The notes under the pieces were generated by a model, which was not told the origin of the DNA, did no database searches, and saw only the letters and a list, made by a program, of their open reading frames with translations. From the NCBI GenBank assembly GCA_041665145.1, contig JBAYJK010000003.1, positions 133,177-197,176 on the forward strand: a stretch of DNA of 64,000 nt. Direction: 5' to 3'. The stretch comes from Patescibacteria group bacterium (GTDB taxonomy: Bacteria; Patescibacteriota; Microgenomatia; UBA1406). Of the stretch, positions 2,116 through 52,527 are shown piece after piece; the stretch's first letter is position 1; each line of letters opens with the position of its first letter. Position numbers and translations under genes: made by a program.

Positions 2116-2658
2116 ATGTTAGTGATGAAGAAGTTTAATCTTTCGCTATTCCTTTTTTGTTTCTTAATCTGTGCTCTGGCAGGAGCTTTTGGTTCCCTGT
2201 TTACTTTCCAGGCAATTCCCACTTGGTACGTAACGCTTGTTAAACCGGCTTTAAACCCTCCGAATTTTGTATTCGGGCCTGCGTGGACACTTCTTTATTT
2301 TCTGATGAGTGTATCGCTCTACAAAGTACTTGTAGCCAAACTCCCACAGAAGCTACTTCATGTGAGACAGACAGGATTAATGTTGTTCTTTGCTCAACTT
2401 GTACTAAATGCATTGTGGTCACTCCTATTTTTCGGAGCTCATATGCTTTTGATTTCTTTTATAGAAATTGTTCTTTTATGGATAGCAATAGTCGGAACGA
2501 TAGTTGTATTCAAAAGAATCTCGAAAGTTGCAGCACTGCTGCTCATACCGTATTTACTCTGGGTAACTTTTGCCGCCTACCTTAATTTTTCCGTATTTCA
2601 ACTCAATACCCCCACTGTTCCGAGCAACTACGTATATTCTGTCCCCGACAACAAATAA
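2116..2658 (+). CDS. tspO: TspO/MBR family tryptophan-rich sensory protein
   Basis: 180 aa, 5 TM. LNPPNFVFGPAWTLLY, LNALWSLLFF and LIPYLLWVTFAAYLN are TspO signature segments. Confidence 0.85.
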   Translation: MLVMKKFNLSLFLFCFLICALAGAFGSLFTFQAIPTWYVTLVKPALNPPNFVFGPAWTLLYFLMSVSLYKVLVAKLPQKLLHVRQTGLMLFFAQLVLNALWSLLFFGAHMLLISFIEIVLLWIAIVGTIVVFKRISKVAALLLIPYLLWVTFAAYLNFSVFQLNTPTVPSNYVYSVPDNK

Positions 2659-2675
2659 ATACTTCCGTAAACAAC

Positions 2676-3149
2676 TTACTGCTGTGAAGGAGTTCCTGTC
2701 GGACGCACCAGTTGCCTGATTACCGGATTCAGTTGTACACTCTCAGCAGTAATGCTTCCGTCGGTATTTTCAGTGCCGAATACTGCAACTTTTTCGCCAA
2801 CTTTCAAATCTGCCTTGGCGCCGGGAGTTGACTTGCTGACTGTGGATTTTCCGGTAAGAAGCACTATTTTTGTACTGCCATCTGCCATTTTAACGGTAAC
2901 AGATTGCTCATCCGCACTGATAATCTCCCCTGCGGTTTGTCGCATTCCTATCCGTGCAGCATTTTGCGCTCCTGTTTGAATGCCGGGTGCACCTTGACCA
3001 TTCATACCCAATTGTCCACCAAATTGAGCCATGCGCGTTCCACGGGACGACGCGGTTTGCATTTCCTGAAATTTCATTCCGCCGAAAAATGCTAATGCTC
3101 CGACTACCACTACTGCCAGGACAGTGACGATCATTGTGTTGTTTTTCAT
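2676..3149 (-). CDS. Secreted/membrane-anchored protein, DUF5666-like beta domain
   Basis: N-terminal TM (MIVTVLAVVVVGALAFF), a G/Q/M-rich linker, then SVTVKMADGSTKIVLL..GEKVAVFGTENTDGSITAESVQL. Last gene of the ABC export operon. Confidence 0.55.
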   Translation of the reverse strand: MKNNTMIVTVLAVVVVGALAFFGGMKFQEMQTASSRGTRMAQFGGQLGMNGQGAPGIQTGAQNAARIGMRQTAGEIISADEQSVTVKMADGSTKIVLLTGKSTVSKSTPGAKADLKVGEKVAVFGTENTDGSITAESVQLNPVIRQLVRPTGTPSQQ

Positions 3150-3161
3150 TGTTTCAATATT

Positions 3162-3181
3162 GGGCGAAACAAGTTTCGCCC
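3162..3181 (-). other. Intercistronic perfect stem-loop GGGCGAAAC-AA-GTTTCGCCC
   Basis: 9-nt inverted repeat read directly between the permease stop (3203) and the next start (3149). No U-tract, so it is not a classical terminator; it could be an mRNA processing or stability element. Confidence 0.4.
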
Positions 3182-3202
3182 CTACAAATTTTTAATTAAT
3201 AA

Positions 3203-4426
3203 TTATTCGTACCTTAATGCCTCAATCGGCTGAAGATTCGAGGCCTTCTTTGCCGGATACCAGCCGAACAGTATTCCGATACCAGCCGATACAACGAAGG
3301 CGATCAGCACAGAAATCGGAGACACGACAAATGCTGAACTGAGAACGATGGACAAGATAAATGAAACAGTTATTCCCAAAACTACGCCGATGATTCCCCC
3401 CGTAAAAGTAAGAATAATAGATTCCATCAGGAATTGGGTTGTAATAACGTTCTTTTTTGCACCGAGCGCTTTTCTGAGTCCTATTTCCCGAGTCCGTTCG
3501 GTAACTGTTACCAGCATTATATTCATAATACCTATTCCCCCGACCAGCAAAGAAATAGCAGCGATACCGGCAAGCAATGAGGTGAACATTCCGGTAATGG
3601 ATGATGCTGAATTCAGAATGTCCTGTTGCGAGAATATGGAAAAATCGGCAGACGCCGGGTCACTTATTTTATGCCTGGCAAGCAGAAAATAGCCGACCTC
3701 GTCTTGTGCGGCTGTCATAACGTCTGAGCTTTGTGCTTCGAGTGCAATTGAACCTAAATAATCTACCCCGAACAGGACTTTTTGCGCTGTTGAAAGCGGC
3801 ACGTAAATCATGTCGTCCTGATTCTGAAACCCGGTACCTCCTTTTGCCACCGTCACGCCGACTATCCGCAATGACTGTCCGTTTATCCTGATGGATTGAC
3901 CGATAGGATCTGCACCTTCTCCGAACAAATCGGTAACTACCTGCGGACCGACAACCGCTACTTTATTAATGCCGTCAACATCGGTCTGAGAAATGAAACT
4001 CCCGGTACTGATGCTTACTTTATGTACTCCGGCATATTCGGGATATACACCGACGATTTGCGTGTTCGTGTTACTCCCGGCAGTGGTAACTTGCGTTCTG
4101 CGGCTTAACTCAGGAGAAACTGTCTTGACGGTGGTGACTTGTGTGGCATTTTTTATGGCAAGCGCATCTGCGAGAGTCAGAGTGGTTGATCCGCCCGCTG
4201 CTTCCCGGACCGCTCCCGAACGCAGTGAACCCGGCTGAACAGTAAGTAAGTTTGCACCCAAAGATTGTATTTGCTCCTGCACACTCTGTTGGGTTGCCTG
4301 ACCGAGAGATACCAGAGCGATGACACTTCCGATTCCTATGACAATTCCCAGGATTGCCAAACCGGTTCTGGTTTTATTCAGCGTGAGCATTCCGAAGCTT
4401 TCTTTGAACAGTTCGAGAAAATCCAT
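3203..4426 (-). CDS. ABC transporter permease, MacB/FtsX family
   Basis: 407 aa. N-terminal TM, a large periplasmic (MacB_PCD-like) domain and a C-terminal FtsX 3-TM bundle (TERTREIGLRKALGA motif). Confidence 0.9.
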   Translation of the reverse strand: MDFLELFKESFGMLTLNKTRTGLAILGIVIGIGSVIALVSLGQATQQSVQEQIQSLGANLLTVQPGSLRSGAVREAAGGSTTLTLADALAIKNATQVTTVKTVSPELSRRTQVTTAGSNTNTQIVGVYPEYAGVHKVSISTGSFISQTDVDGINKVAVVGPQVVTDLFGEGADPIGQSIRINGQSLRIVGVTVAKGGTGFQNQDDMIYVPLSTAQKVLFGVDYLGSIALEAQSSDVMTAAQDEVGYFLLARHKISDPASADFSIFSQQDILNSASSITGMFTSLLAGIAAISLLVGGIGIMNIMLVTVTERTREIGLRKALGAKKNVITTQFLMESIILTFTGGIIGVVLGITVSFILSIVLSSAFVVSPISVLIAFVVSAGIGILFGWYPAKKASNLQPIEALRYE

Positions 4427-45890: not shown

Positions 45891-45950
45891 TGGTGGGTCA
45901 GCTAAGCTGACCAATCACCACGCTGAGCGTGGTGGGTCCAGCGGGACTTG
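45891..45950 (-). repeat. Direct-inverted-direct copies of the tRNA-Lys 3' terminus, forming two triloop hairpins
   Basis: Minus strand: CAAGTCCCGCTGGACCCACCA (45930-45950), hairpin CACCACGC-TCA-GCGTGGTG (45916-45934), hairpin GGTCAGC-TTA-GCTGACC (45896-45912), then GCTGACCCACCA (45891-45902). Confidence 0.8.
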
Positions 45951-45997
45951 CTCAACTGACCGTTGACGAGCCTTCAGGAGTCTTACGGGCAGTTAGT

Positions 45998-46012
45998 CCT
46001 GACTATGTCAGG
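45998..46012 (-). repeat. GC-rich triloop hairpin CCTGAC-ATA-GTCAGG (hairpin family member)
   Basis: Perfect 6-bp inverted repeat read directly. Related to the hairpins at 46041-46057 and 46065-46081. Confidence 0.7.
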
Positions 46013-46030
46013 GGAATCTGCTGTTACTTT

Positions 46031-46093
46031 GTGGGTCCAGCCCCGATTATATCGGGACAACCAACCCCGACTACGTCGGGACTGCTCTGCTGA
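46031..46093 (-). pseudogene. 3' half of a tRNA-shaped pseudogene (D-stem 3' strand, hairpin, variable region, hairpin, acceptor 3' strand)
   Basis: Minus strand: CAGCAGAGCAG-TCCCGACGTAGTCGGGG-TTGGTTG-TCCCGATATAATCGGGG-CTGGACCCAC. Flanking segments match tRNA-Lys, but the anticodon and T arms are replaced by triloop hairpins. Confidence 0.7.
46058..46090 (-). repeat. 33-bp direct repeat, copy 1
   Basis: caaccaaccccgactacgtcgggactgctctgc is identical to 46422-46454. I checked it base by base. Confidence 0.95.
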
Positions 46094-46103
46094 TTAATTT
46101 AGG

Positions 46104-46176
46104 TGGGTCCAGCGGGACTTGAACCCGCAACCAACTCCTTAAGAGGGAGCTGCTCTACCAATTGAGCTATAGACCC
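46104..46176 (-). tRNA. tRNA-Lys (anticodon CTT)
   Basis: Hand-folded cloverleaf: acceptor GGGTCTA/TGGACCC, D arm GCTC-AATTGGTA-GAGC, anticodon arm GCTCC-CTCTTAA-GGAGT, T arm GCGGG-TTCAAGT-CCCGC, discriminator A. CCA is not encoded (ACCT). Confidence 0.93.
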
Positions 46177-46409
46177 ATTATGCCTTTTAAGTAGACCTTA
46201 TTCTTCAACCCCTTCAAGTATCGCTCTCTCTTTACTGCCTCACCTCTCGTAAGAAAGTCCTCTGTATAGACAAGAACCCACGGCTTTCTAGTACTTGTAT
46301 ACTTATGCCTGCAACAATTATGCTCGACCAATCTTCTGTCTACATCATTAGTCGACCCAATATAAAATGACTTATCTTTTTCGCTCTGCAAAACATATAT
46401 ATGAAACAT
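46167..46409 (-). CDS. GIY-YIG nuclease family mini-protein (YhbQ/UPF0213-like, 80 aa)
   Basis: MFHIYVLQSEKDKSFYIGSTNDVDRRLVEHN..RE.. carries the GIY-YIG motifs. Its TAG stop (46167-46169) lies at tRNA-Lys positions 8-10. Start trimmed to ATG 46409. Confidence 0.85.
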   Translation of the reverse strand: MFHIYVLQSEKDKSFYIGSTNDVDRRLVEHNCCRHKYTSTRKPWVLVYTEDFLTRGEAVKRERYLKGLKNKVYLKGIMGL

Positions 46410-46418
46410 ATACAGTGT

Positions 46419-46472
46419 CCGCAACCAACCCCGACTACGTCGGGACTGCTCTGCCAATTGAGCTATAGACCC
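46419..46472 (-). pseudogene. 5' half of the tRNA-shaped pseudogene (acceptor 5' strand, D arm, hairpin, variable region, T-stem 5' strand)
   Basis: Minus strand: GGGTCTATAGCTCAATTGGCAGAGCAG-TCCCGACGTAGTCGGGG-TTGGTTGCGG. Positions 1-27 differ from tRNA-Lys by one base. Confidence 0.75.
46422..46454 (-). repeat. 33-bp direct repeat, copy 2
   Basis: Identical to 46058-46090. Together the two copies bracket 331 bp holding the GIY-YIG ORF and tRNA-Lys. Confidence 0.95.
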
Positions 46473-47154: not shown

Positions 47155-47185
47155 AAGGGTTAAACCCTTTAAGGGTTTAACCCTT
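47155..47185. repeat. Perfect 31-nt palindrome AAGGGTTAAACCCTT-T-AAGGGTTTAACCCTT
   Basis: Read directly. A half-unit, AAGGGTTAAACCCTT, recurs at 51959-51973 next to tRNA-His. Confidence 0.9.
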
Positions 47186-47194
47186 AAAGAAGTC

Positions 47195-47212
47195 TGGTGC
47201 CGGAGGGAATTG
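47195..47212 (-). pseudogene. Orphan tRNA 3' fragment (T loop/stem plus acceptor) ending in CCA
   Basis: The minus-strand CAATTCCCTCCGGCACCA matches the tRNA-Arg(TCG) T-arm/acceptor CAATTCCCTCCGGAAGCA, except in the acceptor. It lies 85 nt downstream of the intact gene. Confidence 0.65.
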
Positions 47213-47257
47213 TTCCGATGCTGTTTTCGAGAAACGAGTAATTACAGCATCGTGAAT

Positions 47258-47273
47258 CCTCGACGCAGTCGGG
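47258..47273 (-). repeat. Hairpin family member (CCCGAC-TGC-GTCGAG, one G-T pair)
   Basis: Plus strand: cctcgacgcagtcggg. Same CCCGAC/GTCGGG core as the hairpins in the tRNA-Lys locus. Confidence 0.55.
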
Positions 47274-47296
47274 AAACCCTTTATATATAGGTTCTG

Positions 47297-47368
47297 TGCT
47301 TCCGGAGGGAATTGAACCCTCATCACTGGTTCCGAAGACCAGTACTCTATCCATTGAGCTACAGAAGC
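47297..47368 (-). tRNA. tRNA-Arg (anticodon TCG)
   Basis: Hand-folded: acceptor GCTTCTG/CGGAAGC, D arm GCTC-AATGGATA-GAGT, anticodon arm CTGGT-CTTCGGA-ACCAG, T arm GAGGG-TTCAATT-CCCTC, discriminator A. No CCA encoded. Confidence 0.9.
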
Positions 47369-50295: not shown

Positions 50296-51543
50296 GTGTT
50301 AAACTTTTTAAGAAAAGAGCTCGAGCATTACGGTAAAATGCCGAAGAATGCTCAACGCCTATTGCTTTCATATCTATTTAACGGTGCAGCGAATCCCCTA
50401 CTGTCAGTTTTTTTAAATGCGTACATCTGGCGAGTAGAACAAGATATTTTGCTTCTGGTGTACTATAACTTCAGCACGTTTATTGCCCTTATTATCGGCT
50501 TCTTTCTCAACGGATACTTTATCCGTAAGATAAAAGTGTCATACATGTATGCTATCGGCATAGTGCTTCTTGCAATCGGCTCCCTTTCCATTTTGTTTTT
50601 CACAGACATCAGTCCACTAACCATTACCATTTTCGGTTTCATTTCGGGATTAGGAAACGCATTTTATTGGGCAAACAGAAACTTTCTTTCACAGCTTGTG
50701 ACAAAAAGTGAATTTCGTAACTACTTTTCCGGGCTAGAAATGGCTCAGGATACTACCACGTATGTAATTGTACCTATCGTGCTTGGATGGTTTCTGGTTA
50801 CTGGAGAATTTTTGCACTTGTACTCGACGCAAAACGCATACGCAGTGGCGTCTATCGGAGCAATGATACTACTTGGCATCTCAGCAACAATTGTCTTAGT
50901 AGATACCTATCATCCTGTTGAAATTGAAAATATATTTTTAAAGAACGTAACTGACACCTGGATGGTGACACGCCTTATAACCTTCGGTGAGGGTTTGCTT
51001 AACGGAATTTCTTTCTTCCTGCCTACTGTATTAATACTGATGTTTGTTGGTAAAGAAAATGTACTTGGAACAGTAGATTCGGCACTTGCGTTTATAACAA
51101 TATTTATGAGTTATATTATTGGTCGTCATATTCGTATACAAGATCGGTATAAATTGATTATTATTTCTGCTGTGGTTACATTGCTGGGAGGAGCTTCTCT
51201 CTTATTTTTCTTTAATTCGATTGGAGTACTCGCCTATAATTTATTGAACGGTCTGGGAGTAACGTTTCTCTATTTGTCATCGAACCCAATGATCATGGAT
51301 ATAACCGACGACAGCCATAAAATTACCAACGGTAGTTTATATGCGTATGTTTTTGACCGTGAATTATTCCTGAATCTCGGAAGAATCACCGGTAGTTCCG
51401 TATTTCTGATACTGTTTGTATATCTTAATTTGACTGCAACACGAATAGCACCTGTTCTCATTGCTGGTGTAGAGCTTGTACTGGTTCTTGCTGGTTTACT
51501 GCTATTGAAACTTCACGCTAAGCGAGTTCCTGTGTTAAAATAG
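50296..51543 (+). CDS. MFS-type transporter (about 12 TM)
   Basis: 415 aa, uniformly hydrophobic with 12 predicted helices in a 6+6 arrangement. Start at GTG 50296 (leaderless geometry) or ATG 50338. Confidence 0.65.
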   Translation: MLNFLRKELEHYGKMPKNAQRLLLSYLFNGAANPLLSVFLNAYIWRVEQDILLLVYYNFSTFIALIIGFFLNGYFIRKIKVSYMYAIGIVLLAIGSLSILFFTDISPLTITIFGFISGLGNAFYWANRNFLSQLVTKSEFRNYFSGLEMAQDTTTYVIVPIVLGWFLVTGEFLHLYSTQNAYAVASIGAMILLGISATIVLVDTYHPVEIENIFLKNVTDTWMVTRLITFGEGLLNGISFFLPTVLILMFVGKENVLGTVDSALAFITIFMSYIIGRHIRIQDRYKLIIISAVVTLLGGASLLFFFNSIGVLAYNLLNGLGVTFLYLSSNPMIMDITDDSHKITNGSLYAYVFDRELFLNLGRITGSSVFLILFVYLNLTATRIAPVLIAGVELVLVLAGLLLLKLHAKRVPVLK

Positions 51544-51560
51544 AGACTGGTGTTTTTATA

Positions 51561-51623
51561 TTGGTGGCTCCCGCCCGCCACGCAAGACGAGCTTGCGAGG
51601 CTTTGCGGGCAGGGTAGCTCAAT
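51561..51623 (+). pseudogene. Displaced tRNA-His 5' fragment (G-1 to position 16) interrupted by a 44-nt GC-rich hairpin
   Basis: TTGGTGGCT (51561-51569), then the insert cccgcccgccacgcaagacgagcttgcgaggctttgcgggcagg (51570-51613), then GTAGCTCAAT (51614-51623). Both flanks are identical to 51871-51889 of the intact gene. Confidence 0.75.
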
Positions 51624-51626
51624 GAG

Positions 51627-51866
51627 ATGTTATACTTTACATACGTCTTAAAAAGCACTGTCGATAATAAGTTATATGTTGGGTGGACTAATAATCTTAG
51701 GCAAAGATTTGAAAGCCATAATAAAGGTTTGGTCGAAGCTACTAAGCATAGACGTCCGTTAACATTAATTTATTACGAGGCAGGAATAAGCAAAGAAAAA
51801 GCAATAAGTAGAGAGAAATACTTTAAAACAGGCTTTGGCAGACGTTTTTTGTTAAGCAGAATTTAA
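51627..51866 (+). CDS. GIY-YIG nuclease family mini-protein (YhbQ/UPF0213-like, 79 aa)
   Basis: MLYFTYVLKSTVDNKLYVGWTNNLRQRFESHN...REKYFK carries the GIY-YIG motifs. Its stop lies 6 nt before G-1 of tRNA-His. Confidence 0.85.
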   Translation: MLYFTYVLKSTVDNKLYVGWTNNLRQRFESHNKGLVEATKHRRPLTLIYYEAGISKEKAISREKYFKTGFGRRFLLSRI

Positions 51867-51872
51867 ATAATT

Positions 51873-51947
51873 GGTGGCTGTAGCTCAATTGGTTAGAGCG
51901 CTGCCCTGTGGAGGCAGAGGTTGCGGGTTCAAGTCCCGTCAGCCACC
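51873..51947 (+). tRNA. tRNA-His (anticodon GTG) with encoded G-1
   Basis: G-1 plus acceptor GTGGCTG/CAGCCAC, D arm GCTC-AATTGGTTA-GAGC, anticodon arm CTGCC-CTGTGGA-GGCAG, T arm GCGGG-TTCAAGT-CCCGT, discriminator C73 opposite G-1. Confidence 0.93.
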
Positions 51948-51958
51948 CATTCAACTGT

Positions 51959-51973
51959 AAGGGTTAAACCCTT
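51959..51973. repeat. Palindromic unit AAGGGTTAAACCCTT (same unit as in 47155-47185)
   Basis: Read directly. Lies 12 nt after the tRNA-His 3' end and overlaps the stop codon of the convergent DUF4256 gene. Confidence 0.85.
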
Positions 51974-52527
51974 AATGACCCACGAAATCCCCGGGCGGCG
52001 TAGTAAGAATCCGCACCGTTGTGGAAGACAAAAACACGGTTAAAACGACGGTCTGCAAACAAAGCACCACCGAGTTTCCGTACCTCGGGAGGTGTTTCTA
52101 CCCAACTGGATGTTGTGGTATCAAACTCCCCAAGTTCTTGCAGATATTCGTATTCTTCCTCTGTTAAGAGCTCAATCCCCATGGCGGCCGCCACGTCGAG
52201 GGCCGTATCTTTCGGTTTAGCAGTTTTGCGGTCTTCCCATGCTTTGTGGTCATAACACAAGCTACGTCTGCCCTGAGGGCTTTGTGGTGAACAATCAATA
52301 AAAATACACTCATTGGATTTTTTATCAAAAACAACAACATCCGGTTCACCCCCCGTTTTTTCCATCTCGTGCAAAGACCATAGCTTTTCCGTCTTTTCTT
52401 CCAACCGTTTCTGAATACTGGCCCATTCGCAAATTGAGTGACGTTTCATATTCTTCTCGAAACGGGTTTTCAATACTCCCAGCAACCTTTCACGATCTTC
52501 GGTTGAAAGTGTTTTTTGTTGTTTCAT
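51964..52527 (-). CDS. DUF4256 family protein
   Basis: 187 aa. ..LLGVLKTRFEKNMKRH....W..IQKRLE....KLWSLHEMEKTGGEPDVV.. matches my recollection of DUF4256. Function unknown. Confidence 0.6.
   Translation of the reverse strand: MKQQKTLSTEDRERLLGVLKTRFEKNMKRHSICEWASIQKRLEEKTEKLWSLHEMEKTGGEPDVVVFDKKSNECIFIDCSPQSPQGRRSLCYDHKAWEDRKTAKPKDTALDVAAAMGIELLTEEEYEYLQELGEFDTTTSSWVETPPEVRKLGGALFADRRFNRVFVFHNGADSYYAARGFRGSLRV

Follow-up and report, generated by a model that had tools for sequence, protein, structure and literature searches.

A short open reading frame (ORF) with a GIY-YIG nuclease domain lies between an intact tRNA-His gene and a broken copy of that gene's 5' end in a 64-kb stretch of DNA from a Patescibacteria group bacterium (the whole stretch is hereafter called the window). 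The question raised by this locus is what brought the ORF, the broken copy, and the GC-rich palindrome inside that copy together in front of a tRNA gene that has stayed whole. Our analysis suggests that the locus represents a family of tiny, two-part selfish cassettes that is spread throughout Patescibacteria, a reading to which we assign a probability of roughly 0.6. The two parts are probably a free-standing, minimal GIY-YIG nuclease gene of 78-79 amino acids (aa) and HP, a palindrome of 36-50 bp that resembles a miniature inverted-repeat transposable element (MITE). The element occupies the 5' end of conserved genes, with the intact copy of the gene behind the ORF and a dead, HP-interrupted 5' duplicate ahead of it. 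We are highly confident that the cassette is a mobile element in nature; the specific mechanism by which it spreads is put forward here as a tentative proposal.

The tRNA-His locus and its nuclease gene

The features of the locus are collected in Table 1. An earlier note on this DNA described a tRNA-His 5' copy split around a 44-nucleotide (nt) GC-rich hairpin, and all coordinates of that description were confirmed. The duplicated string, given there as 19 nt, lies where it was placed but is 20 nt long, because the preceding A is also common to both copies. Jointly, pieces A and B repeat the ATT leader, G-1, and tRNA-His positions 1-16 found at 51870-51889. The sequence of piece A has 2 matches in the 64 kb, and that of piece B has a third match within a tRNA-Arg gene, against 0.14 expected for each from shuffled sequence. 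The HP between the two pieces is a clean insertion into the dead copy, which spans positions -3 to 16. The pattern CCCGCCCGC..GCGGGCRGG finds this insert as its single match in the window, with 0 expected, and the insert folds as DNA at -14.5 kcal/mol (z = -3.55), a stability reached by 0 of 200 shuffles.

As the earlier note also reported, the 79-aa ORF starts 3 nt past the fragment and its stop codon falls 6 nt short of G-1. This ORF is the sole gene in about 300 bp of inserted DNA, which holds no tyrosine or serine recombinase, and an Rfam scan of 51560-51873 at E up to 1 returned no family and no group I or group II intron ribozyme core. Judged by their consensus match, the overlapping sites ahead of the fragment are presumed to be the original tRNA-His promoter, which would read on through the fragment, the hairpin, the ORF, and the tRNA; the 701 nt scanned for such sites (51350-52050) contain 3 promoter-like matches versus 1.1 expected. 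A weak promoter-like match, TTGGCA-16-CAGAAT, also lies within the 3' end of the ORF (51835-51862) and would place a transcription start at the tRNA leader. Because this match runs over the conserved GFGRRFL..RI* codons, the C-terminus of the protein might double as a tRNA promoter. At its other end (51940-51949), the window tRNA-His reads ...CAGCCACC-CA, whereas the cassette-linked tRNA-His genes of four other loci (L046, L090, L130, and L143) end in ...CCCCA; the 3' CCA is therefore incompletely encoded in this copy.

Table 1. Features of the tRNA-His cassette and of its tRNA-Lys sister in the 64-kb window.
Feature	Position in window	Strand	Basis or remark
Candidate promoter pair, TTCACG-18-TAAAAT and TTAAAA-16-TATATT, overlapping, sigma-70-like	51512..51562	+	consensus match only
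Displaced tRNA-His 5' piece A, ATTGGTGGCT: ATT leader, G-1, acceptor positions 1-6	51560..51569	+	exact repeat of 51870-51879
HP, CCCGCCCGCCACGCAAGACGAGCTTGCGAGGCTTTGCGGGCAGG: 44-nt GC-rich imperfect palindrome, orientation "flop"	51570..51613	+	insertion between tRNA positions 6/7
Displaced tRNA-His 5' piece B, GTAGCTCAAT: positions 7-16	51614..51623	+	exact repeat of 51880-51889
Stand-alone 79-aa GIY-YIG predicted nuclease gene, minimal Slx1/UPF0213 type, stop included	51627..51866	+	domain match
Spacer ATAATT, 6 nt, stop codon to G-1; final ATT is the duplicated leader	51867..51872	+	
Intact tRNA-His(GTG), G-1 genome-encoded (51873), preserved target gene	51873..51948	+	ARAGORN (51874-51948); Rfam RF00005, 72.2 bits
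Palindrome AAGGGTTAAACCCTT, directly 3' of tRNA-His	51959..51973	+	3 window copies, 0 expected, all beside tRNA-related sequence
Sister cassette at tRNA-Lys, second ORF subfamily	46102..46472	-	
Dead tRNA-Lys copy, positions 1-52	46472-46419	-	
17-nt GC mini-hairpin in place of the anticodon arm of the dead tRNA-Lys copy	46445-46429	-	
Sister-cassette GIY-YIG ORF	46409-46167	-	
Intact tRNA-Lys(CTT)	46176-46102	-	ARAGORN

The GIY-YIG assignment of the window protein, likewise proposed earlier, is upheld by a match to Pfam PF01541 over residues 3-69 (61.3 bits against a cut-off of 22.6; E = 1.1e-16). Members of its family are 78-79 aa long and 64-75% identical to it (25 homologues). Residues Y6, Y17, G19, R27, H31, and E63 are invariant in the 25-member family alignment, and we take these residues, among them the two tyrosines of the GIY and YIG motifs and the metal-binding glutamate, to have the catalytic roles generally attributed to them in GIY-YIG enzymes. 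The sole matches in the PDB, both at low identity, are the UPF0213 proteins 1ZG2 (E = 4.4e-8) and 1YWL (3.2e-6), which Dunin-Horkawicz et al. assigned to the Slx1 family in its minimal, stand-alone domain form (PMC1564403). The chain ends at residue 79 and carries no auxiliary domain; against the I-TevI-type model TIGR01453 it scores 22.6 bits, below the 56-bit cut-off, with residues 5-40 covered. The ORF product is a predicted catalytic-domain-only nuclease of the Slx1/UPF0213 type.

At E up to 1e-10, a full scan of 1.84 billion cluster representatives yielded 704 clusters; the window subfamily forms a tight Patescibacteria clade. Carriage by phages was set aside, the family being found on 1 viral contig only. 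Between cassettes, dN/dS (the ratio of nonsynonymous to synonymous substitution rates) ranges from 0.04 to 0.22 at dS values often above 1, which indicates that the protein has been kept functional over long times. One ORF (L075, 1504-1737) contains an in-frame stop (..KTGF*RNFLNQRI) and is apparently a decaying copy in the otherwise conserved Asn-site clade. The exact window ORF and the neighboring major facilitator superfamily (MFS) transporter gave no record in the contig index, and the nearest homologues of the transporter are 42% or less identical and not syntenic.

Recurrence of the layout and range of targets

From two cases in the window, the earlier note had argued for a recurrent biological process rather than chance and had called in advance for a survey of tRNA adjacency and upstream 5' duplicates, a survey whose outcome strongly favors its view. 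We examined 80 loci from species-representative genomes, chosen solely for a homologous ORF by means of the 25-homologue alignment. The surveyed loci, designated by L numbers, are metagenome assemblies, and many of the counts given here include related copies, so that the events are not independent. A tRNA gene on the same strand lies within 130 nt past the ORF stop at 61 of the 80 loci (within 25 nt at 44, at 26-130 nt at 17). Three loci beyond these (L022, L054, and L056) have the 5' half of a tRNA-Asn downstream, followed by a group I intron; at L008 the tRNA is cut by the contig end, and the contigs of L002 and L070 stop too early after the ORF to judge. Thirteen tRNA identities are represented: Lys, Asn, Thr, His, Gln, Arg, Ile, Phe, Met, Val, Pro, Gly, and Ala.

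Duplication of the target accompanies this adjacency. At least 10 exact nt of the 5' end of the downstream tRNA are repeated upstream of the ORF in 39 of the 61 loci, compared with 0 of 60 control regions further upstream that were given the same test. The upstream copies sit 60-120 nt before the ATG, often with 2-8 or more nt of leader. In total, this arrangement was seen in Patescibacteria at well over one hundred genes for tRNAs and proteins. Chance and assembly artefact are ruled out, since the repeats and the palindrome exceed shuffled expectation and the layout recurs in independent assemblies (NCBI, JGI, ENA, and Logan). The assemblies have peculiarities of their own. The contigs of L002, L008, L010, L014, L038, L042, L043, L070, and L202 end about 30-140 nt past the ORF stop, which suggests breaks introduced during assembly at the cassette's tRNA or HP repeats. 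Many contigs with the cassette (L006, L007, L010, L014, L072, and others) bear the title "uncultured Gammaproteobacteria" or "Methanosarcinaceae archaeon," probably through mislabeling or mis-binning of the metagenome-assembled genomes.

Going beyond the earlier note, we find that the targets of the cassette extend past tRNAs. For instance, at L013 (1400-1800), L069, and L077, it sits at the 5' end of NAD-dependent epimerase/dehydratase genes (PF01370), where HP interrupts a duplicate of the ATG..GGAGF segment; the stop of the L013 nuclease ORF shares bases with the start codon of its epimerase gene (ATGA). The two epimerase copies of L077 are about 75% identical by eye count and differ mainly at third codon positions, a pattern that suggests a homologous piece from another genome that may have traveled with the cassette. 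At L025/L030 (1030-1430) and L048 (1500-1810), the ORF and HP lie in a diversity-generating retroelement (DGR), between the bAvd gene and the template-repeat/reverse-transcriptase part, the reverse transcriptase being called by motif recognition in a fragment without a Pfam match. The four-helix-bundle genes beside some cassettes, a candidate for rRNA intervening-sequence proteins, were corrected to bAvd proteins of DGRs. The rRNA operon of L122 is occupied at two places: a related GIY-YIG ORF, bounded by inverted repeats of 15 nt that match perfectly (TCCAGCCCCACTTTT), lies within the 23S rRNA gene (2540-2860), and the spacer between the 23S and 5S genes contains an HP whose flanks resemble a D-arm (4090-4132).

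This range of targets bears on whether the GIY-YIG protein could be a domesticated host factor that works at tRNA genes in DNA repair or RNA metabolism, the fragments and palindromes around it being unrelated debris. Such a role would fit the strong purifying selection, the long persistence at the same sites, the few copies per genome, and the fusion to TrmH within the Slx1 family that prompted a suggested role in RNA metabolism (PMC1564403). However, what the cassette occupies varies by genome, from tRNA genes of 13 identities to epimerase genes, DGR loci, and rRNA operons, and the majority of tRNA genes in any one genome are free of it. The existence of a pseudogene, of remnants that lack the ORF, and of copies in tandem or nested in one another also speaks against a host role, as does the neighbor-joining tree of the 79-residue ORF products, which is star-like, with tRNA identities mixed and few small same-target clades. 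We regard a host factor as most improbable.

The cassettes vary in their arrangement. In tRNA-Lys cassettes, the ORF often lies 60-85 nt upstream and HP abuts the working tRNA at position 3/4, the terminal GGG of HP regenerating tRNA nucleotides 1-3. At L016, L039, L044, and L071, HP-bearing fragments flank the ORF on both sides, the intact tRNA follows farther on, and remnants of ORF 3' ends stand ahead of each copy; this arrangement points to repeated events. At L046, the piece before HP (ATTGGTGGC) equals the local tRNA-His, but the piece after it (GTAGCTCATTG) is unlike the local tRNA (GTGTGCCGAACGG) and equals the window-type tRNA-His, which suggests that at least this second piece traveled with the cassette. 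The cassettes of L022, L054, and L056 (about 1738-2004) stand immediately upstream of a tRNA-Asn with an ORF-less group I intron in its anticodon loop; the introns are inside the downstream tRNA and outside the cassette, at a site previously reported in a 2025 preprint (10.1101/2025.07.03.662931). L133 (about 715-810) shows a mirror-image layout, with an intact tRNA-Val, an apparent ORF-end remnant, and a 3' piece of a tRNA with HP in its T-loop. In the pairs L127/L141 and L190/L197, the cassette regions are more alike than their flanks, and no near-identical cassettes (at least 80% nucleotide identity) were found at different tRNA types.

The window itself holds a sister cassette at tRNA-Lys, to which the earlier note had likened the tRNA-His locus. 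The displaced 5' copy, GC hairpin, ORF, and intact tRNA are indeed shared, but the hairpin at tRNA-Lys replaces part of the dead copy rather than interrupting it; the two proteins, at 35% identity, are as clearly diverged as that note had stated. The sister belongs to a second, rarer ORF subfamily of the same design, found at tRNA-Lys and tRNA-Tyr, in which GC hairpins of 16-17 nt stand in for 7-15 nt of the dead copy; the ORF stop in this subfamily falls inside or abuts the first tRNA nucleotides. In the window copy, the ORF ends 10 nt within the intact tRNA-Lys, and further hairpin-bearing tRNA-Lys pieces lie downstream of the cassette. Mini-hairpins of this kind occur at 4 sites in the window, all within tRNA-Lys or tRNA-Arg debris, versus 0.06 expected.

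Downstream of the intact tRNA-Lys (45930-46095, minus strand) is a "skeleton" tRNA-Lys that begins with the 3' part of the D-stem. The mini-hairpin CCCGACGTAGTCGGG replaces its anticodon arm and is followed by the variable loop, and the mini-hairpin CCCGATATAATCGGG replaces its T arm and is followed by the acceptor 3' strand; a separate tRNA 3' end piece, GCAAGTCCCGCTGGACCCACC, comes after it. The skeleton appears to be what remains, displaced, of the 3' part of an older tRNA-Lys gene. Behind the tRNA-Arg(TCG) gene (47296-47368, minus strand), about 95 nt include the hairpin CCCGACTGCGTCGAG (47259-47273). A foreign-looking tRNA 3' end, ATTCCCTCCGGCACCA (47212-47195, minus strand), comes next, and 47195-47300 may be an ORF-less remnant on the tRNA 3' side. 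The palindrome AAGGGTTWAACCCTT (47155-47185 and 51959-51973) has 3 copies, each immediately after tRNA-related sequence, with 0 expected, and could be a terminator or another small repeat family. For the copy directly behind tRNA-His, a terminator or a further repeat element is possible, and its membership in the cassette is uncertain.

HP and the spread of the cassette

The upstream tRNA copy is broken by HP in nearly all loci. The consensus of HP is CCCGCCCGCC-A(T)CGCAAGC-loop-GCTTGC-(C)AGGCGTTG-CGGGCGGG, and HP is present at no fewer than 64 of the 80 loci. In 48 loci a strict pattern locates it no more than 80 nt before the ATG, and in 16 more solely downstream of the stop; this pattern misses variants, and several of the remaining loci hold split, nested, or variant copies. 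The median distance from HP to the ATG is 15 nt, with 5-17 nt of target-derived sequence between HP and the ORF in most cassettes. Compared with the intact tRNA, HP junctions are clean insertions with 0-2 nt of ambiguity, and no fixed-length target-site duplication was seen at the mapped junctions. HP enters the tRNA at positions 3/4, 6/7, 7/8, 9/10, 10/11, 11/12, 13/14, 14/15, and 17-23 and in the anticodon and T loops. By our own tally, about 55 of 62 mapped sites, not all of them independent, touch unpaired cloverleaf positions; sites inside stems include 6/7 in the window and one within an HP arm (L002). The tRNA-His cassettes alone use four positions: 6/7 (window, L046, and L130), 7/8 (L143), 9/10 (L090), and the D-loop (L029).

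A second point beyond the earlier note is that the 44-nt hairpin is a member of a sequence-conserved, orientation-independent, and independently mobile family of palindromes. Relative to the ORF, upstream copies number 37 flop and 20 flip, and downstream copies 9 of each. In an alignment of 38 HPs, the primary sequence is near-invariant, especially GGCGTTGCGGGCGGG, there is almost no covariation, and the asymmetric bulge is conserved in both orientations. The window HP differs from copies in L049, L098, L116, and L179 at 2 of 44 positions. Identical HPs of 44-47 nt stand beside ORFs that are merely 59-73% identical as proteins (about 70% as DNA), which indicates that HP moves on its own, and identical HPs occupy different tRNAs, positions, flanks, and orientations. 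The divergences of HP and ORF are uncorrelated (rho = 0.05; 143 of 500 permutations at least as high), which rules out inheritance of the two as a single unit. Spread of HP solely by gene conversion through shared D-arm flanks was also ruled out, identical HPs being found in non-homologous flanks, among them position 3/4, the D-loop, and other contexts. Flipping of HP with the D-loop TA dinucleotide is contradicted by L029, L049, and L062 (flop at GG|TA) and by L066 (flip after TA).

HP also occurs apart from the nuclease gene. A scan of metagenome contigs selected for HP gave at least 120 matching stretches, 80 of which were analyzed (L081-L160). In these 80 stretches, 34 HP copies lie within 150 nt of a GIY-YIG ORF, 31 are solo copies (3 of them chance matches in GC-rich DNA), and 19 are at contig ends, where the context is not assignable. 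Solo HPs next to tRNAs come with a dead fragment and apparent short ORF-end remnants, sometimes in tandem, and look like ORF-less cassettes; other solo HPs are within unrelated AT-rich DNA, and HPs are found inserted in other HPs. The arms of HP are 9-bp GC terminal inverted repeats, with many near-identical copies dispersed. The two orientations, the conservation, the identical dispersed copies, and the solo and nested HPs together indicate that HP is a MITE-like element and not private to the tRNA-His locus. Other repeats keep it company in places: at L180 (reverse complement, about 2150-3250) and L123, the isoleucyl-tRNA synthetase gene is full of short hairpin repeats, actcctcccctgataaggggaggaagg and cccccttatcaagggggag, along with HP, which suggests additional families of palindromic elements in these genomes. 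These two loci had been considered as a filled/empty pair, but they are not a polymorphism; L123 is a partial contig through the repeat-rich synthetase gene.

The same data speak to whether the hairpin acts as RNA instead. As a stem-loop in the 5' untranslated region, it could stabilize the nuclease mRNA or, like an rRNA intervening sequence, be cut by RNase III, freeing the mRNA from the tRNA-like leader while RNase P sets the mRNA 3' end. The median spacing of 15 nt before the ATG and the promoter-like sites upstream of the fragment agree with this, and ORF-in-hairpin insertions of rRNA genes resemble intervening sequences (PMC11270868). Yet both orientations of HP are common, and the non-Watson-Crick pairs of its outer stem reveal no preference for G:U on the sense strand (28 vs 37); the antisense strand even folds slightly better (57 vs 32 loci). 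The strong conservation of primary sequence without covariation is unlike what this explanation would call for, and HPs are also found past the ends of ORFs, as solo copies between genes, and right against the 5' ends of mature tRNA-Lys. An RNA-level role is accordingly very unlikely in our judgment.

For the cassette, we tentatively propose a form of homing. The nuclease would cut cassette-free alleles in the 5' part of the target, and repair from a filled allele would copy the ORF together with a replacement 5' end, pushing the resident 5' end upstream; because the replacement comes with the ORF, the target gene would stay functional. The first insertion at a new target would be a one-sided, illegitimate join that creates the duplication, after which the whole structure could home by ordinary recombination. 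Expression of the ORF would come from read-through from the tRNA promoter left upstream of the dead copy, with RNase P freeing the tRNA. HP would enter the dead copy independently of homology, probably at nuclease breaks in positions unpaired in the cloverleaf. It may be retained because it destroys the sole remaining full target (native flank plus tRNA 5' end), a self-immunity of the kind known from collaborative homing. HP would also break the direct repeat into stretches of about 10-25 nt, hindering deletion of the ORF.

Several points weigh against this proposal. Sequence-specific homing by this protein alone is doubtful because the protein is a 79-aa catalytic domain without a DNA-binding domain. 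The intact tRNA keeps the tRNA part of the target, so immunity requires recognition of the upstream flank, which varies by locus. Since two-sided homologous repair makes no duplication, the first insertion at each tRNA type needs an illegitimate step that is unexplained. The ends of the duplication vary as well, on the left from 0 to more than 22 nt upstream and on the right between tRNA positions 12 and 38. Values of dS above 1 between cassettes at the same site imply long vertical persistence, which also fits a host-useful gene, and an empty allele of the tRNA-His locus was not found in the collections reached.

These weak points lead to the main rival, in which HP is the true mobile unit and the substrate of a structure-specific nuclease. 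An Slx1-like cut at the extruded palindrome, or at single-stranded hairpins and loops, would move HP and the adjacent ORF, the arms of HP would be the ends of the element, and the tRNA duplication would be a by-product of repair. The lineage is suggestive, for eukaryotic Slx1 members cut branched DNA and the bacterial ones are minimal and lack DNA-binding modules (PMC1564403). In L041, L064, and L077, HP arms flank the ORF like terminal inverted repeats, and a different inverted repeat does so in the 23S rRNA gene of L122; the insertions of HP into HP, the preference for cloverleaf loops, the conservation of sequence and bulge either way round, and the closeness of about half of the HP-selected copies to an ORF point the same way. 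Against this, inverted-repeat flanks occur in merely 7 of 140 ORFs, target-derived sequence parts HP from the ORF in most cassettes, HP and ORF do not co-diverge, and some HP sites are within stems. GIY-YIG enzymes are, moreover, hydrolytic, with no known strand-transfer activity. We consider this rival unlikely.

A broader conjecture, which we think possible although somewhat unlikely, is that bacteria harbor a new class of mobile element made up of an Slx1-like, catalytic-domain-only nuclease plus its cognate palindrome. Such an element would pick its targets by DNA shape and not by sequence, going for the loops and junctions that single-stranded or extruded DNA forms when it folds like a tRNA or into hairpins. 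If true, this would explain how the element reaches targets as different as 13 tRNA identities, rRNA, the template regions of DGRs, and gene starts prone to hairpins, and it would account for the entry of HP either way round without target-site duplication and for the original role of the widespread bacterial UPF0213/YhbQ-type proteins.

Comparison with known systems

We found no description in the literature of a cassette that unites an Slx1-type nuclease, a cognate palindrome, and a 5' target duplication at tRNA genes. The nearest papers, on rRNA insertions of the Candidate Phyla Radiation (CPR; PMC11270868) and on tRNA introns of Patescibacteria (the 2025 preprint), contain no GIY-YIG ORFs at tRNAs, hairpin-bearing tRNA fragments, or palindromes of this kind. 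If the two-part cassette is what we take it to be, it gives the minimal Slx1/UPF0213 branch of GIY-YIG proteins its first biological context, at least in Patescibacteria, and adds a very small selfish element of about 300 bp to the catalogue of bacterial mobile DNA. It would also mean that a parasite can hold essential, single-copy tRNA genes of extremely reduced genomes without killing the host, by duplicating the 5' end of the gene and then using a second mobile part to disable the spare. Annotation of tRNAs and the calling of integration sites could be misled by the dead tRNA pieces, and the strong linkage of ORF, palindrome, and tRNA offers a handle on how a nuclease without a DNA-binding domain recognizes its target.

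Among homing enzymes, the closest likeness is to SegB of phage T4, a GIY-YIG enzyme with a 27-bp site that includes the conserved tRNA T-psi-C motif (PMC2330249); the free-standing GIY-YIG homing endonucleases of T-even phages have been reviewed (PMC2988022). Both SegB and the window ORF are GIY-YIG genes among tRNA genes, outside introns, and SegB, as we propose for the cassette, spreads with flanking tRNA sequence. SegB belongs to the I-TevI lineage and is housed in a phage; the window protein, of the Slx1/UPF0213 lineage, consists of a 79-aa catalytic domain and is encoded on a cellular chromosome. In the I-TevI lineage, the catalytic domain is paired with a DNA-binding domain. To our knowledge, neither a partial target duplication nor a palindromic partner element has been reported for SegB. 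The UPF0213 (YhbQ-type) proteins 1ZG2 and 1YWL share the minimal, single-domain build (PMC1564403) but have no reported mobility or link to tRNA genes.

Collaborative homing offers a parallel for the division into two parts. As summarized in PMC6083498 after Zeng, Bonocora and Shub (2009), an ORF-less intron shields the target of a free-standing endonuclease. On that summary, the likeness lies in two selfish parts, a nuclease gene beside the target, an insertion in the nuclease's own target, and mutual spread; the difference is that the insertion in the cassette is a non-splicing, 44-nt DNA palindrome and that what it interrupts is a dead duplicate rather than the functional gene. It is by this likeness that we infer an immunity acting through HP. 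The loci with a free-standing nuclease beside an ORF-less intron in tRNA-Asn (L022, L054, and L056) have the layout of collaborative homing itself.

HP, for its part, has counterparts in organelles. PstI palindromes of Neurospora flank tRNA genes, and Allomyces has double-hairpin elements. Like HP, the palindromes of organelles are short and GC-rich, occur in either orientation, are sometimes nested, and often lie near tRNA genes and endonuclease ORFs; they differ in their unrelated sequences, in belonging to eukaryotic organelles, and in not being tied to dead duplicates of a target. We know of no cognate Slx1-type nuclease gene for them. In yeast mitochondria, GC clusters are likewise mobile, GC-rich palindromes in an AT-rich genome (PMC4478555).

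Within the same phylum, insertions that are not introns but carry GIY-YIG ORFs have been described in rRNA genes of CPR bacteria, where they occupy the top or the base of a stem-loop (PMC11270868). These insertions share the phylum, the nuclease superfamily, and the preference for structured-RNA genes with the cassette, and L122 is such a case. There the rRNA itself is interrupted, whereas the tRNA cassettes keep the gene intact by means of a 5' duplication and place the ORF beside the palindrome, not inside it. Integrase-borne islands likewise keep their tRNA targets functional by means of a duplicate of the displaced segment; they use tyrosine integrases, usually duplicate the 3' end, and span kilobases, in contrast to about 300 bp, the 5' end, and no integrase in the cassette. 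Each ingredient of the cassette has a precedent in these systems, and their combination, phylum-wide and with tRNA genes as the main targets, appears in light of the literature we consulted to be new.

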